Below, in pieces: positions 5,918 to 63,533 of a DNA stretch of 64,000 nucleotides (within the stretch, counting starts at the first letter, position 1; each line of letters begins with the position of its first letter). The stretch is from Octopus vulgaris (Eukaryota): assembly GCA_951406725.2 (NCBI GenBank), contig OX597840.1:18228001-18292000 (forward strand), written 5' to 3'. The notes beneath the pieces were generated by a model. The model had not been told where the DNA came from, did no database searches, and worked only from the letters and a program-made list of their open reading frames with translations. A program made the translations under genes and the position numbers.

Positions 5918-6096
5918 TACTCTCCATCTTCCCTTCCTTGGACCTTTCCTTTTCCTATGTTTCTGATGAAGAGCTCCGCTCGAATCATAAAACCCTCCTT
6001 TTTCCCTTCCTTCCTGAGCGTCCAATAATACTATATTTGTTCCACGTCCTCGCATTGTTGTGTTTTCTCTTTGTGTTTTCATGTTTGGATTAACTA
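5918..6096 (+). mobile_element. Short hammerhead-bearing (TA)n-anchored element, family A (other copies 22806-22900, 24526-24720, 29039-29210, 44240-44445, all minus)
   Basis: Shared sequence ending TTGGATTAAC(TA)n. Motif C(T/C)GANGA-A-GAGC-loop-GCTC-GAAACGTT; this copy has GAAT. Confidence 0.75.
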
Positions 6097-14289: not shown

Positions 14290-14790
14290 CTATCGAGCTC
14301 CGGCTGCAGCGCCATCTTGCGGGTCACCAAAAATCACGAAGTCAAACGATTTTCTTCTTTCCGTCATGGCCATCAGTTTCCTTTCGGCTGTGCCGTCACC
14401 TTGCAGATTCCAAAACGCTAGCAGTAATCTTCTAAAATGCAAACGTGGTCCGAAAATCTCCGTTCTGGAGTTAAGGATGCTCCCTGGTACGAGCGAGCCT
14501 TTTAAGATTCTCATGCATTCATCTATGCATAACTTGCAACGTTCATCCCGTTGATATAGGGGCCTGGGTTTTCGAGGATTTCCCCATGAGATTGAGTATG
14601 GTATCCCATCGTCTCTTAGTTGCCAGACATGACTGACCAGTGATGTTACGTATCTCCTTACCGGAATTCTGAAGGAGTACAAATGGTTGGAAAGACGTTG
14701 CTTGAAAGAATTCCCAGCACACCCCAGGTATTTCCATGGGCGCGTGCTGTCGGTGTTGCACCTGTTGCTGTTGTAGGTGTTGCTGTTGCT
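14290..14790 (-). mobile_element. Penelope-like element GIY-YIG endonuclease remnant (C-terminal EN)
   Basis: KYLGCAGNSFKQRLSNHLYSF...TSLVSHVWQL...CKLC...ILNSRTE motifs within ORF 14290-15048. Followed by a degenerate CTGATGA..AAAC motif (about 14170-14191) and (TA)n. Confidence 0.85.
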
Positions 14791-14988
14791 GCTTGTTTGT
14801 TTGTTGAGCGTTTGGGAGAAGTCCGAAACATGGTCCTTTGCTATTCGTAAGACCCGCAGAAGAGAAAGCAGGTCAACCCCTGACACCGAGAGCATTGACG
14901 GATGGATGAATGCGCACCGACCAAAGCCATGTGAGTAGATTTGGTAGACGGAAACTGAAAATAGCCCGTCATTTATATATATACTTAT

Positions 14989-15749
14989 TAATAAGGGTTC
15001 AGCAAAGATTTGCTTTACCACATACCGAAGTTTAGAAATAGCAGCCAAAAAATTTTAGCTATTTCTTCTAATAAGTATTACTTAAGTTTACCGTAAAATG
15101 GTCCTTTTTTCATACCGAATTCGACTTGGTGAAATTATTGATTACTTCTTAATTAATTAATTTTACCCTGTGTTATTATTGATAATAGAATTTTCTCCCT
15201 GAGCACAAACTGAAGGTTTTTTTCTGTAGTATTTTACTTGAAGACACACGCGGATGGGCGGGAGAAGCTAAGCGAACCTCATTCATATTTTTAATTCAGC
15301 GGTACTAACACTGAATATGATCTGTCTGATACCGTTAGGCGGAGAGATATATTCAATTATTTCAGTACCCTCGAATTATTGAGGAATGCCATGCTGATGA
15401 GGTAAATTGTTGGTAAAGTATAATTCTATATTCTTTATTCCAATCTAATTCCGAAACGCGCGTCCATGGATGACCAGATATTGATTGATTTTCGTTGCTT
15501 TACTCTCTGCCTGTGTGGATTATCTTCAAGTATTTTGGTTTCTCTGGGAGACCCTTTTTAAAGTAGAAGAAATAGCTAAGATTTTTTGGCTGCTATTTCT
15601 AAACTTCGGTATGTGGTAAAGCAAATCTTTGCTGAACCCTTATTAAGTATTACTTAAGTTTACCGTGAAATGGTCCTTTTTTTCATACCGAATTCTACTT
15701 GGTGAAATTATTGATTACTTCTTAATTAATTAATTTTACCCTTTGTTAT

Positions 15750-22497: not shown

Positions 22498-22500
<3 letters not shown>

Positions 22501-22782
22501 TTGTTTTTTCATTACTGTTTTCAATTTCGTTTTCGTCTCTTGTATTCACATCCGTCTTGTGCGTTCACATTCCTGTCTTCTACCAAGAAATCTAATGCTT
22601 ACAGCTTAGTTTTTTTTCTTGGGGCTGGCCGAGTTGGAGCAAATATCAGAATTGAACAGCCGAAATTTGCTATGATGATTCGGTGTCTGACTGAAGATTG
22701 AAGGCTTCGAATGATTTGTCTGTGTTCCGTGTTCGTCCCTTCCTGTATTTCACGTTCATTATATATAAAAACATTCATTCTT
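22498..22782 (+). mobile_element. (TA)n-inserted element, family C (other copies about 34910-35492 +, 62916-63228 -)
   Basis: Shared AATCTAATGCT..AGCTTAGTT..CTTGGGGCTGG..GAAATT..CTGARGA..CTTCGAATGA blocks. TA tracts on both sides. Confidence 0.8.
22623..22697 (+). ncRNA. Candidate permuted (pseudoknotted) hammerhead, family C copy 1
   Basis: ggctg-g-ccgagtt-gga-gcaaa-TA-tcaga-attgaa-cagcc-GAAA-tttgc-tatgat-gattcgg-tg-tctga-CTGAAGA. Confidence 0.6.
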
Positions 22783-23573
22783 ATATATATATATATATAT
22801 ATAAAGTTAATCCAAACAAGAAAACAAAAAAAACACAACAACGCGAGGACGTGGAACAAATATAGTATTATTGGACGCTCAGGAAAGATGGGAAGAAGGA
22901 ATACATACATATGTCTATATAATAAAGAGAAATAACCTCTATTAAATAATTCAATTGATAGTGAAAGATATCTTTATTTAATCATATAGAAAACATTTTT
23001 AATATATTATAATAAATATTATTCTAAAAATCTCTAAATTAAATAAACATTAAATCAAGTTTGGAATTTTATATTCCCTACTATTATTAATCAATTATAT
23101 ATAGCAGTTAAGCACACACACACACCCCATCTTTTACATACACATATTCACACAGAGTTGAAACGTTGTTTGATTTATTTTTTCAGCGTACATCATCCCA
23201 CTACCAAGTATAACATCACCCCTTCCTTCCATATTCATCTGTCACCCCCTTCCTTTGTCAGCCAGCCATAAACACAAGAGTATTATTATAGTATATTATC
23301 TCGGTAACCATGGGAGCTATGAAAAAAATACCGGATCATTCTACACATCTGTGTAATTTTTCCCGTAATTCCACCCAGCCATTTGACCATGAATCGCTCA
23401 TGTCGAATTTATATATATATATCTTTTATCTTTTATTTGTTTTAGTCATTAGACTGCGGCCATGCTGGGGCACCGCCTTGAAGAATTTTTGGTCGATTGA
23501 ATAAACCCCAGTATTTATTCTATCGGTTTCTTTTGCCGAACAGCTAAGTTACGGGGACGTACACAAGCATAAA

Positions 23574-24391: not shown

Positions 24392-24522
24392 AGAGAATTT
24401 ACAAAAACAAAACAAGACGAAGACGGGTGAGTAAACAACAAACAGATGTATTAGTTTAACGCTCGGAAAGTGAGAAAGTCTTTTACGTTTCGAGCCTTCG
24501 CTCATCGACAGAAAGGAACACA
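24392..24522 (-). mobile_element. Hammerhead-like element, family B (other copies 33703-33880 +, 35776-35962 -, 46762-46950 -, 47131-47318 +; related 38063-38250 -)
   Basis: Shared sequence. Motif cttt-CTGTNGA-N-GAGC-loop-GCTC-GAAA-CG-TA-aaag. Confidence 0.75.
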
Positions 24523-26601
24523 GTGAATCCAAACAAAGAACAAACAAGAAAAAACAATAACGCGAGAACGTGGTACAAGTGTTGTATTATCAAAAGTTCA
24601 GGAAAGGAAGGAAAGAGGATTTAACGTTTCGAGCCAAGCTCTTCTTCGGAAACAGAGGAAAGTCCAAAGGAAGGGAAGACGGAGCGAGAAAATCGCCAAC
24701 GATACACACACGGTCACTTATTGAAATGAGTGGAAGGGAATGGGTGGAGAAAAAGTTCTTTCAAGAGTGCAAGAGGAGATATGTGTGTGTGGGGCGGTGT
24801 ATGTGCGTTCGCACAGCTCTGTGTGTGTGTGTGTGTGTGTAGTAATAGCACGTGTATGTGCGCGCGTGTGGGTATGTATGTGTGTGTACATGTGTGTATG
24901 TGTGTGTATGCGTGGGGTTGTATGTGGAGTTGTGTCTGTGGAGCAAATGTACGTTACTCTGTGTGTGTGTGCGTGTGTGTATGTGGGTGTGGGGGGGGGG
25001 TTGTGAGTGTCAGGTATGTGCGCATTCATGTGCATGTGTGCGTGTGTGTGTGTGCGCGCATGTGTGCGTACTTGTGTATGTATGTGATATATATATATAT
25101 ATATTAAGAAGACGGTGAGCTGGCAGAAACGTTAACACGCCGGTCCAAATGCCTAGCGGTATTTCATCTGCCGTTACGTTGTGTGTTCAAATTCCGTCGA
25201 GGTCGACTTTGCCTTTCATCCTTTCGGGGTCGATAAATTAAGTACCAGTTACGCACTGGGGTCGATGTAATCGACTTAATACCTATGTCTGTCCTTGTTT
25301 GTCCCCTCTGTGTTTAGCCCCTTGTGGGTAATAAAGAAATAGATATATATATATATTAAGTAGGTTCAGCCGCTGCCAATGTCTGTTCGTCATGTTGTTT
25401 GCCGCTCGTCTCTGCTATATCGCAAAGCTCGCTGCATCTCGGTTGCGTGTGTGTGTGTGTGTCATTTTATACTGATTGAGAGACTCAGAAAGGATTGCGC
25501 GGAAAGATGATATTGACGCTGGAGCCTATTCTGCATGGAGTCGTGACTGGCTGGCTTTTGTTGATCACGTGGATAATGTTTCTTTCCAGGTGAAGTCGCG
25601 ATTGGTCAGATTCGCTGATTATGTGGGCAACATTCCAGCGAATCGCGGCATTCGAGTGATTGTTCTAAATATTCTCACTACACAGTTTAGTCGGGAGTGA
25701 GGGATTAAAAGTGTCTGTGAATTAGATTCAATCAAATAAAGCAGTATAGAAGAAAACCTTTTTTAAATACTCGGTAGCGGTGGTGATGGTGGTGGTAGTG
25801 GCGGTGGGGATATAATTACATTTATTAAGAAAATATAATTAGTTAATTATAATTATTTTATTATAAATATATGTAACTAATAAATATAATTGCAAATTAG
25901 CCTTTTAATGACTTTATCTTACATAAAGAACATTATAATAAACAAAATACGTGGGGTAAATTTTTGGTTTGACTGCTCCTCCGAAGTCCCATACCCCACG
26001 GGGAACGAGAAAGGTACGGAAGGGGTGGAGGAGTATTTTTTAAATTAGAATTTTTTAGGGAAAATAATAATTATTTCCGTTGCAATGAAAAGCAGGAAAT
26101 GGAATACTGAAAAAAAAAAAAAAAGTGAGTGAATGAAGGTGACCGAAACCCTACTCTTTTTCTTTTGTCATGCGGTTTTGGGACTTCGAACGAAAGCTAT
26201 TCTCCCAAACCGCCATTCTTTGTAATTAACAACAAAGGTGTTGTTCATTTTCTTAATTTAAAATCCTGATGTCTATCAGATGATGAGAGTTAAGGGCTTC
26301 AAGTACTTGTAGGTTCCCCTGTGCCTACTTTAGGGGTTTAAACAGAATGGGAAGGTCAGTTTTAGGGTCACATAAATACGTGTTCGTTCCGAAGTCGTTT
26401 TTAAGGGCCCGTTCGCTTTATCGCTTTCGTATCGACCCCATGGTGAACTGGGATACGTGGTATAACATAGCGTGTGTGTGTGAGTGAAAATAATACATGG
26501 TTTTCAACGGTGGTGATCATAATGATGGTAATGGGTGGTGAAGGTGGAGACGGTGGTGATGATTATGCTGACGGTGAGGATGACGACGATGATGATTGAG
26601 A

Positions 26602-28194: not shown

Positions 28195-29208
28195 GAAATG
28201 TACATGAATATGTTAAATATGACTGTGTACAACTATATTTCGTTCAATGATGCTTTGTAAACCTTTTATATTTCTATATATTTGTATATATAAAGTGCTA
28301 AACCGTAAAAACAACAACAAAAGCATTAGAGACAACTTCTCAAGGAGTTCCCGCATTCTTAGCATTCTAAGAAGTAAATTCTTTAGCAAAGGAAGGGTTT
28401 CCTGATTGGGTCCGGTACCAACTTCATTTCGGAGCAGCGACCAGCATTTGACCAAGTAGACAACACAGTACTTAGTTACTACAGTAGGAACCTTTCCGTG
28501 GTAGAAATAACAGTAAAATATCTCGTACATTATGCCCCTGTCGTCTTGCGAAAGAAAAGGTCACAGTGGTGAATGATGTCGGTTTCCTGTGTCCGAGAAG
28601 AGAATGAGTATAGTCATGGTTGGGCTGCCGATGATTATAGGTCTGTTCAACGTGGGATGACTCGGGGTTAAATAACAAGACCGTATGTTTGTGTGCGTGT
28701 GTGTGTGTTTGTGTGTGTGGTTTAGATTTTAGCTGTTCTTTCTAGCGTAAAGGATTCCTATGATAGAAACCTCTTATGTGTTTAAATGTACACTGTAATT
28801 TGTATGAATAATATAGTCTATTGACTAATTTTTCTATTCGCTAGGCCACTGGTAGTAGAAATTTCTAAAATCTTTATTACCCTGATATATATATAAGCAT
28901 AACAAGTTATACATGTATGTATATTCTTGTAATTGTCATTTTAGTAAATAAATAAGTTAACATAATGTAATGTCTAAAAGTTGATGAACCACCTATTGAT
29001 CCCCTTCATTTTCTTATTGCTACATATATATATATATAGTTAATCCAAACATGAACAAAGAGAAAACACAACAACGCGAGGACGTGGAACAAGTATAGTG
29101 TTATTGGAAAGGAAAGAAAGACTTAACATTTCGAGCGGAGCTCTTCGTCAAAAACATAGAAAAGGAAAGGTCCAAGGAAGGGAAGGCAGAGAAAGAAAAT
29201 CGCCAACG

Positions 29209-29280
<72 letters not shown>

Positions 29281-34911: not shown

Positions 34912-35303
34912 TTGCTCCACTTTTCACTTCACTGTGTCCCTGTCATTTTTTCTCGCCCCTCCTTAATTCTTCTGTCCCTCTGTCTCTACTTCTCTCTTAT
35001 CTTCCCATGTGACCGGCGTTCAGCCAAGCCTGATCTTTCTTTCTTGGTCTGGCCGTCGTCCGTGCAACATAGATATTCTTCCCTGTGCCTGTGAAATCTT
35101 GTATCTCTGCCGTAAGGCTTCATTTCCACACACGCCAGCTTAATTTAATTCGTTCTTAGTCGAAAGACACCTGTTGTTATGTCCTGTTATTATGTTTATT
35201 GCATTTATGTAACATTGCCTGTTTTTTTTTCGTCCTTGTTTTTGTATACATCCGCTGCTTTCTTCCAAGGAATCTAATGCTCTTAGCTTAGTTTTTTTCT
35301 TGG

Positions 35304-35376
35304 GGCTGGCCAGATTGGAGTAATCTCGAGTATAATCAGTCGAAATTGCGAGGATTATCTGGTACTCGACTGAGGA
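35304..35376 (+). ncRNA. Candidate permuted (pseudoknotted) hammerhead, family C copy 2
   Basis: ggctg-g-ccagatt-gga-gtaa-TC-tcgagta-taat-cagtc-GAAA-ttgc-gaggatt-atctgg-tactcga-CTGAGGA. Confidence 0.62.
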
Positions 35377-35709
35377 AAGAAAACTTCGAATGACCCGTCC
35401 TTGTTTTCTTTGTAACTGGATGTTTTGTTGTCCCATTTTTGTATCACCTAACTGCCCGGATGTTTTGCGTTCTTGTCCTATTTTGTATTTTATACATATG
35501 TGTGTGTGTGTGCATTATTTACTCCAAAACGATTACCAGTTTGCTCTCGGTTAGGCATTCAAAATATGTTATTCAACAGTTAATATATAAATCCAATGAA
35601 GTTCCTGTATGATACCAAATTAGATGAATATTCCGTTGGATAATTATGAATATATTTCCTTAACCAAATAAGTTTCCTGGAGTTCAAATATCGGTATAAG
35701 GATTTGCTA

Positions 35710-44042: not shown

Positions 44043-44451
44043 TGTATATATATATATATATATTGGCCGATAGAATAAGTACTAGGCTTACACAAATAAG
44101 TCCTGATGTCGATTTGCTCGACTAAAGGCAGTGTTCCAGCATGGCCGCAGTCAAATTACTGAAACAAATAAAAGAATAAAACAGTATATATATATATATA
44201 TATATATATACGTATGTATATATAATTATTTTATGTCAAGTTAATCCAAAACATGAAAATACAAAGAGAAAACACAACGCGAGGACGTTGAACAAATATA
44301 GTATTATTGGACGCTCAGGAAAGAAGGGAAGAAGGAGGATTTAACGTTTCGAGCGGAGCTCTTCGTCGGAAACATAGGAGAAGGAAAGATCCCGAGAAGG
44401 GAAGACGGAGGAAAAAAATCGCCAACGGTACTCACGAGGTCACATAGATAC

Positions 44452-58224: not shown

Positions 58225-58943
58225 GATATGTATATAGTGTGATATATCAATGTGGAAAATTGCCAGAAGCAAGTCAAAATATAAACGAGAGCAGGGGTAC
58301 TTAGTATGAACCGAGACTGCTCTGAGTTCGGAAGATTATGGACAACTCTATTTTGGGTGGGATTCCCCACACACTGAAAAGATATATGTCACAGTAAGAC
58401 CACCTCCTGAAGAGAAATCAGCTCTGGTATTTAATTCGTAGCTTTTGAAGTTCATCGAGATATACTCTTTCTCCGCTGTACATTGTCAACATTTTTCGGG
58501 GCCCAGTGGCATATAGCCTGTTCAACTTTAGAAATCTATATGGTGTAAAAATCAGCATTATATTCTTTCAGCTTCCAATGGAGTTTGCCAGTGTTGTTAT
58601 TGCTCTCTTATGAACGTATACAGTTCCACTGCGTGGCATCTTGGGAAAGTGACATCTGTAGATCCTGGCCAGCTAATATTTTGTTAGTGAAATTGGTAGA
58701 CGGAAGCTGTGTGGAAGCCTGTCATGTGTGGATGTTTTCGTCATTGCTCTGTGGTTTTTCGCCAATGGCGCCACAAAAAAGTAAATAATAAGAAAGAAGA
58801 GAACGTCAAAGTTAAAGACACGAAATTGTAATGATCTTTTGAATGTTGACTGATGAGGAATTAGCTACAGATTTTCTGCTTTTAATGTTTCTGTAAAATT
58901 GTCTGTTTGTTGTGTTTTCGTTAAATTTTTGATATATATATAT

Positions 58944-60562: not shown

Positions 60563-61098
60563 GGTACAGGACGTCATAAAACGTAAACAACATGAAATAC
60601 GAAAACCTGGAATACGAACTTTTTTGCGAACAACGAAAGAAACAAATGGAAAACAAGACAAGTAACATAAAGAACGACCCTTCATCAGTTGTCGGCTGTT
60701 TTATCTACTCCTTATTTTGAGCAATTACAAGATGTCTCTTCGAGATAACAGTTCCTCCCGAAAAAGCAAAATAAATTTAGGATTTGTAGAGGGTCAAAGT
60801 TGATAACAAAAACAGGACAGTGAAAAGAAACAGTAAGGGTTGCTAAGGCATAACGAAGTGATGTGACGAAGGCTGGAAGAACAAGCTTTGACAGGAGATT
60901 TTACCGTCTTTGATCGTCCGCAAATCCCAAATTTTATTTTGCTTTTGTAAGAGCAACTGTTTTCTCGAAGAGTCATCTTGTCGTAATTGCTCGAAATGTG
61001 GAGTAGATAAAGCAGCCGACGACTGATGAAGAGTCGTTGCTTATGTTTCTTGTCGTATTTCGTATTTCGTGTTGCTTACGTTTTATGACATCCTGTAT
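60563..61098. mobile_element. Fold-back (TA)n-associated element, family E
   Basis: Diverged inverted arms, about 60564-60799 and 60908-61097. Confidence 0.75.
60951..61029 (+). ncRNA. Candidate permuted (pseudoknotted) hammerhead, family E; degenerate mirror copy at 60682-60757 (-)
   Basis: gagcaa-ctgttttct-cgaagagt-ca-TC-ttgtcg-taa-ttgctc-GAAA-tg-tggagt-agataaagcag-c-cgacga-CTGATGA. Confidence 0.6.
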
Positions 61099-62649: not shown

Positions 62650-63033
62650 CATACATACATATATATATATATACATATATACACACATATATATGTATGT
62701 ATGTATGAGTGTGTGTGTATGTTTGTATATATATATATGTATATATACATATATCCACATGCATATGTACATGCACATATACCCACACATACATACACAC
62801 ATACACACACACCCATATACACACACATAGTTTATAACTGGTGGTGCATATATATACAAGACATACTCGGATGTGTTCCTCTGTGTGTATGTGTGTGTTT
62901 GTGTATATATATATAATACAAAATGGGACAAGAACGCAAAGCATCCGCACAGCTAGGTGATATAAAAAGGGAAAACAAAACATCCTGACAGACGATACAA
63001 AGAAACCAAGGACGGGTCATTCGAAGTTTTCTT

Positions 63034-63106
63034 TCCTCAGTCAAGCCCCAGATTATCATCGCAATTTCGGCTGAATATTCTTGAGATTGCTCCAATCTGA
63101 CCAGCC
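63034..63106 (-). ncRNA. Candidate permuted (pseudoknotted) hammerhead, family C copy 3
   Basis: Minus strand: ggctg-g-tcagatt-gga-gcaa-TC-tcaag-aatatt-cagcc-GAAA-ttgc-gatgat-aatctgg-gg-cttga-CTGAGGA. Confidence 0.62.
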
Positions 63107-63533
63107 CCAAGGAATAACTAAGCTAAGAGCATTAGATTCCTTGGAAGAAAGCAGCGAATCTATACAAAAACAAGGACGGAAAAAACAAAGTTACACAAAT
63201 ATAAATACAATAATAAATACAAAAAAAATACTATATGTATATGTCTATGTGTATGTATATATATATGCATATATATATACACGGATATAGATACATACAT
63301 ACATACATACATACATACATACATACATACATACATACATCTCCATCCATCCATCCATCCATCCATACATACATACATACATATATACATACATATATAC
63401 ATACATATATACATACATACATACGTATGTATACACACATGTCAATCCTCACCAATATCGGGTGACATGCAGGCTTAAGAGTAATTTAAAATTAAAACCA
63501 CTCGAAGTATGCTTTTACATATTTGTTTCGTTG

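Follow-up and report, generated by a model that had tools for sequence, protein, structure and literature searches.

A repeat copy in a 64,000-nucleotide stretch of the Octopus vulgaris genome (contig OX597840.1, positions 18,228,001 to 18,292,000, forward strand; hereafter the window) is likely, judging from its sequence, to fold into a knotted hammerhead that has all core bases and stems I-III, keeps the strand order S, G, C and would cut after A22645. The motif looks hammerhead-like in every sequence test, falls outside types I-III and lacks one defining feature of type-SGC. Beyond this copy, we lean towards a wider reading, in which the motif would represent a seventh hammerhead wiring outside the six-block scheme, triply knotted, with the A9-G10.1 link opened by a four-way junction and with an interchangeable kink-turn or loop E; it would be the hidden ribozyme of Naiads across several animal phyla and would drive a still-active circular-RNA parasite of ~700 nt with tens of thousands of relatives in the octopus genome.

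The copy (copy 1, 22554-22723 in the three-copy comparison; all features on the + strand) belongs to a 5'-truncated copy of a ~700-nt family C unit at 22498-22786, flanked by two (TA)n tracts. Its linear order is X 5' strand, Y, stem II 5' strand, helix b 5' strand, S, G, helix b 3' strand, stem I, CUGAAGA and X 3' strand. The 5' strand of helix X (22568-22582), whose partner is the strand after A9 (22698-22713), is followed by hairpin Y (22583-22622), placed directly between X and the stem II 5' strand ggctg (22623-22627, G10.1 = 22623), which is shifted upstream of the remaining core and pairs with cagcc (22657-22661). The next segment (22629-22638) consists of the helix b 5' strand ccgagtt (22629-22635), paired with gattcgg (22677-22683), and the GA of the putative kink-turn short strand (22637-22638). 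Block S (22639-22650) contains the stem III 3' strand, U16.1 (22644), H17 (A22645) and the stem I 3' strand, and encloses the predicted cut (22645/22646). Block G (22657-22670) contains the stem II 3' strand, GAAA (22662-22665) and the stem III 5' strand, and stem III forms between gcaaa-U (22639-22644) and A-tttgc (22665-22670). The putative kink-turn long strand, with a 3-nt bulge and GA, leads into the helix b 3' strand (22671-22683 together), and the split block C (22686-22697) carries tctga (22686-22690), paired in stem I with tcaga (22646-22650), and CUGAAGA (22691-22697), with stem II not next to it. The hammerhead core, C3 U4 G5 A6 N7 G8 A9, G12 A13 A14, A15.1-U16.1 and H17, is present. 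A second GAA after CUGAAGA was considered as part of a normal type I core and ruled out, as it pairs in the outer helix X.

All 40 scored genome matches of copy 1 (of 1895 candidates) are 100% identical over 181 nt, so that copy 1 is a member of a young subfamily (c1) with a divergent master. The sequence-only reading had called this copy divergent, which is right for the master, but the copy is no old outlier. Two more family C copies, both of an older subfamily, lie in the window at 35232-35402 (+; GAAA at 35342, CUGAGGA at 35370) and at 63008-63177 (-; GAAA from 63068, CUGAGGA from 63040). A family D inverted pair between (TA)n tracts (60657-61054; 60657-60822 on the - strand and 60889-61054 on the + strand) shares the architecture of family C and no sequence similarity with it. 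Both members of this pair carry the split-core fold and a loop-E-like joint, in an arrangement typical of PLE insertions. A decayed family H copy at 58720-58878 (+) has GAAA ahead of CUGAUGA and terminates in (TA)n, with unrecognisable upstream helices.

The layout differs from known hammerheads in the break behind CUGANGA. The earlier description of a permuted fold at 22623-22697 is correct in that the strand order is altered, but it understates the change, as the CUGANGA block is also separated from stem II, and its limits left helices X and Y (22568-22622 and 22698-22713) outside. Types I, II and III are ordered CGS, GSC and SCG without pseudoknots, and family C copies are ordered S, G, C. 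A classic SGC fold with stem II after A9 was rejected for family C, because those bases are unpaired with the stem II 3' strand: they form 0-1 of 5 pairs in six of seven family C representatives (0 of 5 in copy 1) and 3 in one. In family B the bases after A9 form 3-4 of 5 pairs, always weaker than the five upstream Watson-Crick pairs. The bases after A9 instead open helix X, the partner of X ends directly before Y, and Y ends directly before G10.1, so that the stem II 5' strand lies ~70 nt upstream of its usual place with X and Y at the break. Helix X is 75% paired over the cells of the family C and G alignment described below, with double changes in 6 of 16 pairs, and has 0 of 4 double-sided pairs in the family B and D alignment; of its two pairs adjoining A9, one is open in 12 and the other in 14 of 21 family C copies. 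Between families X covaries (tttctt:aagaaa, cccct:agggg, gaccct:agggtc), and within families it does so weakly. Scores of automatic X and Y placement, which chose wrong partners in several representatives, were left out.

A kink-turn consists of a C helix, a 3-nt bulge, tandem GA/AG pairs and an NC helix. Where stem III meets helix b, 18 of 22 copies of family C show a 3-nt bulge with tandem GA on each strand, which at the sequence level we take to be a kink-turn signature, and the signature is present in family F too. At the same joint, many copies of families B and D place GAGUA across from GAA, a loop-E-like motif. The occurrence of one joint in families C and F and of the other in B and D suggests that the bend modules are interchangeable. 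The kink-turn strand AUGAUGA and the core CUGA (22671-22695) look like box C and box D. This resemblance accounts for the sub-threshold snoRNA matches which, with microsatellite-driven miRNA matches, were all that Rfam returned for the whole window and for the 221-nt stretch at 22540-22760.

All helix strings quoted earlier for the three copies are found in the sequence as quoted. Of the compensatory changes claimed there for three helices, three stem I pairs and two helix b pairs stand, but stem II shows a wobble only; the 1-bp length change of stem III is a true two-strand indel among the three copies. Two changes that had been read as changes of the master are private decay of copy 2, namely gtaa (0 of 29 near siblings) and cagtc (1 of 29), while tcag of copy 3 is carried by 4 of 29 near siblings. 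The evidence for selection within the three copies is weaker than had been claimed, but the claim holds genome-wide. For this, two alignments were built with MAFFT without structure: A1, of 22 family C and G copies picked for diversity from 90 full-length copies, and A2, of 25 of 40 copies of families B and D. True partners are paired in 85.8% of cells in A1 and 85.3% in A2, and changes on both sides occur in 24 of 47 and 24 of 35 pairs, respectively, so that paired positions covary in larger alignments as had been expected. Stems I and II are 94-97% paired in both alignments and all three stems have double-sided changes (5 of 5 pairs of stem II in A1); helix b has 3 of 6 such pairs in A1 and 7 of 8 in A2, and hairpin Y covaries too. 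The covariation score is 0.266 against 0.166 for shuffled columns in A1, where 0 of 500 shuffles reach it, and 0.392 against 0.216 in A2, in both cases with relatedness ignored by the shuffles. The count of further pair types is unexceptional, being matched by 33 and 66 of 500 shuffles. Because the shuffles ignore relatedness, a stronger point than the scores is that unrelated families carry different stems, such as ggctg:cagcc, gaagg:ccttc, gagca:tgctc, gacac:gtgtc and gccca:tgggc for stem II. Over stems I, II and III of 16 representatives, pairing is 0.98-0.99 with a stem's own partner, a value favoured by the choice of partners by best fit, and 0.47-0.56 across families.

These figures bear on the view that the pairings reflect relatedness, simple hairpins and by-eye fitting, with no knotted fold at all. 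Such a view could draw on the nested-only fold of copy 1, which is no better than those of shuffled sequences (z -0.57), on the quoted changes that proved to be private decay, and on the lack of a hammerhead match in Rfam at 22540-22760. Nested folding and Rfam models, however, are unable to represent a knotted topology, controls with slid partners are 29-50% paired against ~85% for true partners, and the layout is kept in unrelated families and in those Naiads of other phyla whose published ends we parsed; we regard this view as largely refuted and very improbable.

In two sets of 30 flank-selected copies, the base differs from the majority at N7 in 10 and 14 copies, at H17 in 5 and 19, and at each remaining core position in at most 2, which bears out that N7 and H17 are the freest core positions. 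Among 29 siblings, picked by similarity, decay is even (core 0.022, stems 0.031, rest 0.023), which fits neutral decay of the copies and selection on the master elements, as the sequence-only reading had proposed. A perfect core was unnecessary for some spread, since copies with A13G (common to 6 of the 100 listed flank-selected family B copies, counted by eye) and copies with U17 (9 of 25 in A2) have spread. The A13G branch of family B has GGAA for GAAA, for example in matches 36491159, 45164428 and 61147012. The spread of these branches agrees with a reading in which the fold is real and serves as a binding or priming signal for reverse transcriptase, the core being slow or a dead relic. Hammerhead cleavage was dispensable for insertion of an Anolis PLE in vitro (PMC11167929), and, according to the accessible part of the report, 8 of 9 Xenopus retrozyme dimers were uncleaved in vitro (bioRxiv 10.64898/2026.07.22.740005); the function of the opened A9-G10.1 link, too, is a prediction. 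Against this, the positions that stay fixed are precisely the catalytic bases, whereas N7, H17 and every stem have drifted between unrelated families, and truncations peak at the predicted scissile bond, so that we consider a relic or pure priming signal unlikely.

The truncation peak comes from a sister subfamily (ATTAAT, not c1), for which junctions to (TA)n were counted genome-wide at four positions: 82 at +1, 9 at -2, 29 at +4 and 25 at -11, although positions -2 and -11 have longer microhomology to (TA)n than +1. Inspection by eye of 26 distinct truncated loci gave 6 starts at +1, 17 in the next 10 bases downstream and 3 among the 19 bases lying upstream; truncation starts of core-selected copies were left out. 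The peak at the site equivalent to 22645/22646 indirectly supports cleavage there, with the reservation that a structural stall at the same base could produce it.

The motif is abundant in the host genome, which is 2.8 Gb long and rich in microsatellites. The pattern CGAAAY-N20-28-CTGANGA, which places block G ahead of block C, gives 33,754 genome matches against 2,930 for the reversed control. Sorting the loci of ~70 of the first 100 matches to this pattern gave, beside family C, the families B, D, E, F, G and H, each with other stems; B and D are mutually related, and no HMM similarity at E<0.01 was found between family C and B, D or F. For family C, flank-only patterns returned 3,131 intact copies (against 0), and for family B 2,732 copies (against 13). 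With a descriptor demanding at least 3 bp in stem III and at least 4 bp each in stems I and II, 61 of 138 core matches pass (~10 of these 61 belong to the same young subfamily as copy 1) against 14 of 2760 with the upstream part shuffled. In a metagenome pattern search, 1 of 61 passed, weakly, and was taken as chance.

The carrier resembles a Penelope-like element (PLE) in its ends. Families C and B have fixed 3' ends and variable 5' ends, which is a Penelope-like pattern. In family C, 99 of 113 copies have (TA)4 within 150 nt of the 3' end; the count for family B is 45 of 50, compared with 27% at random points. In subfamily c1 the unit ends ~60 nt past the motif, its first TA run being internal. 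Sibling loci of c1 contain tandem units spaced 691-719 nt, and the unit is non-coding, with a longest ATG-started ORF of 75 aa. No same-strand PLE ORF was found upstream of any motif in the examined loci, and the Naiad ORF, with N-terminal GIY-YIG and C-terminal RT, is absent from the non-coding family C unit. The (TA)n target, 5' truncation and tandem or inverted arrangement are all found here and are common to other PLE clades too. A decayed GIY-YIG-like frame at 14293-15054 (-), with no Pfam match, is probably a PLE remnant. One 748-nt contig from four public-run contig sets, which are not on record as RNA, closes on itself, for which tandem DNA and a circle both fit.

Architecture and target are all that connect family C to Naiads, with no sequence link to a Naiad ORF, whereas family F (1609 candidates) is, by eye, nearly letter for letter the published 3' end of Naiad_Obim and Naiad_Ovul and has the full fold including the kink-turn. 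Among the published Naiad consensus sequences, which cover 54 families, 5 of the 8 3' ends examined parse by eye as X-Y-II-b-S-G-C-X, further examples being Naiad_Plae and the entries that precede Plae and Anas (which the metadata order gives as 2_Movir and Aacu). The other three did not show the motif: Dcar and Omin, each of them marked incomplete, and the record preceding Obim, of which the last 600 nt were covered. In the accessible material of Craig et al. 2021 (PMC8557442), Naiads are described as being without a canonical hammerhead, 17 Naiad rows bear 'HHR_core' or 'HHR_half_core' flags that fit no descriptor, and cephalopod Naiads are called long inactive, in contrast to the young subfamily c1. 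In the portion of the same supplement that we consulted, the 5' ends of Naiad_Obim, Ovul and Omin have a conserved CUGAAGA just before the ORF, with no obvious GAAA partner. A canonical PLE with a 784-aa ORF was rejected as the carrier, the motif being present at 0 of 30 of its 3' ends; the single family C match in its loci is upstream and on the opposite strand. The abundant canonical PLE carries, ~100 nt before its fixed 3' end, a minimal hammerhead-like motif and not the split fold. In the young canonical PLE (784-aa ORF, at least 150 identical matches), UUGAAAA replaces CUGANGA in the 3'-end motif.

Several known systems share part of these features. Eckert et al. 2023 (PMC10085705), in the text accessible to us, defined the blocks C, G and S, assumed them to be uninterruptible and reported that type-SGC RNAs cleave in vitro. 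Type-SGC (HRIMA-1 and variants), as described there, is like the present motif in the S, G, C order with a full core, the short linker between stems I and II and an extra helix that pairs the sequence following the 5' strand of stem II with the sequence preceding that of stem I. It differs in that its stem II 5' strand directly follows CUGANGA, in contrast to ~70 nt upstream here, where X and Y interrupt the strand and the added joint is of the kink-turn or loop-E-like type. Animal non-LTR retrozymes, as far as the available parts of the reports go (Cervera and de la Pena 2020, PMC7229834; Li et al., 10.64898/2026.07.22.740005), share non-coding tandem units of a few hundred bases, one ribozyme per unit and a proposed Penelope-like origin, but they are defined by type I hammerheads, which family C, known from DNA only, does not have; the type I descriptors used for them would miss a split-core motif. 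Naiad PLEs, in the available description (PMC8557442), agree in the (TA)n target, truncated 5' ends, partial tandem arrays and inverted pairs. They differ in that the family C unit lacks an ORF and has no detectable sequence similarity to the end of the octopus Naiad; by sequence, family F alone is a Naiad end. The minimal type I hammerheads of canonical PLEs, in the consulted part of PMC4209133, likewise lie ~100 nt before a fixed 3' end, and often carry one unpaired base, which is tolerated, at the 5' end of stem II. They have C-G-S order and a tiny stem III and are dimeric, whereas the split-core motif is pseudoknotted with a stem III of 4-6 bp. A search of literature text, mostly in openly available papers, returned no published description of a split block C, of the Naiad version of the fold or of a hammerhead with an opened A9-G10.1 link.

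In the proposed fold, stem II would still stack on the A9-G12 pair and stem III. Leaving the core after A9, the chain would run into X and re-enter the core at G10.1 from Y, so that core, X, Y and II may form a four-way junction that keeps the II-core-III stack. The kink-turn would bend stem III, turning helix b back so that it holds stem I and stem II together and does the job of the type-SGC 'I' helix. A geometric puzzle of joining stem III to this 'I' helix is raised in the accessible text of Eckert et al. (PMC10085705), and a kink at the joint between stem III and helix b would solve it. Cutting of tandem transcripts would give unit-length, possibly circular, templates. A reverse transcriptase of Penelope-like type, for which the Naiad clade is the likeliest source, would copy them into (TA)n; running off the cut RNA, it would leave copies starting at base 1.1. 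The tandem arrangement of c1 (691-719 nt) also admits an active ribozyme only across adjacent units or in a circle, in which block C would combine with II, S and G of the next unit (type-CSG) and X would loop out the rest. The topology permits this, and other PLE hammerheads work as dimers (PMC4209133, in the part available). In the motif, however, all helices close inside 150 nt of one unit, each Naiad consensus end examined in the published set has a single motif, and the local fold should form first during transcription; we consider assembly across units quite improbable and prefer the knotted fold within one unit.

If this fold is correct, the published assumption of an unsplittable CUGANGA block would be overturned, and non-circular RNA permutations, so far a matter of metatranscriptomes, would have a place in animal genomes at high copy number. 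The reported absence of hammerheads in a widespread retroelement clade would be explained, descriptor-based censuses of ribozymes and retrozymes would have overlooked a whole class, and the core would gain a new entry for ribozyme engineering.

The window also contains ends of a different repeat, with a minimal hammerhead-like motif in normal order (CUGAUGA, short stem, CGAAAC) at 5922-6094, 22804-22900, 24522-24720, 29038-29210, 38182 (-) and 44239-44446, one of which directly adjoins copy 1.
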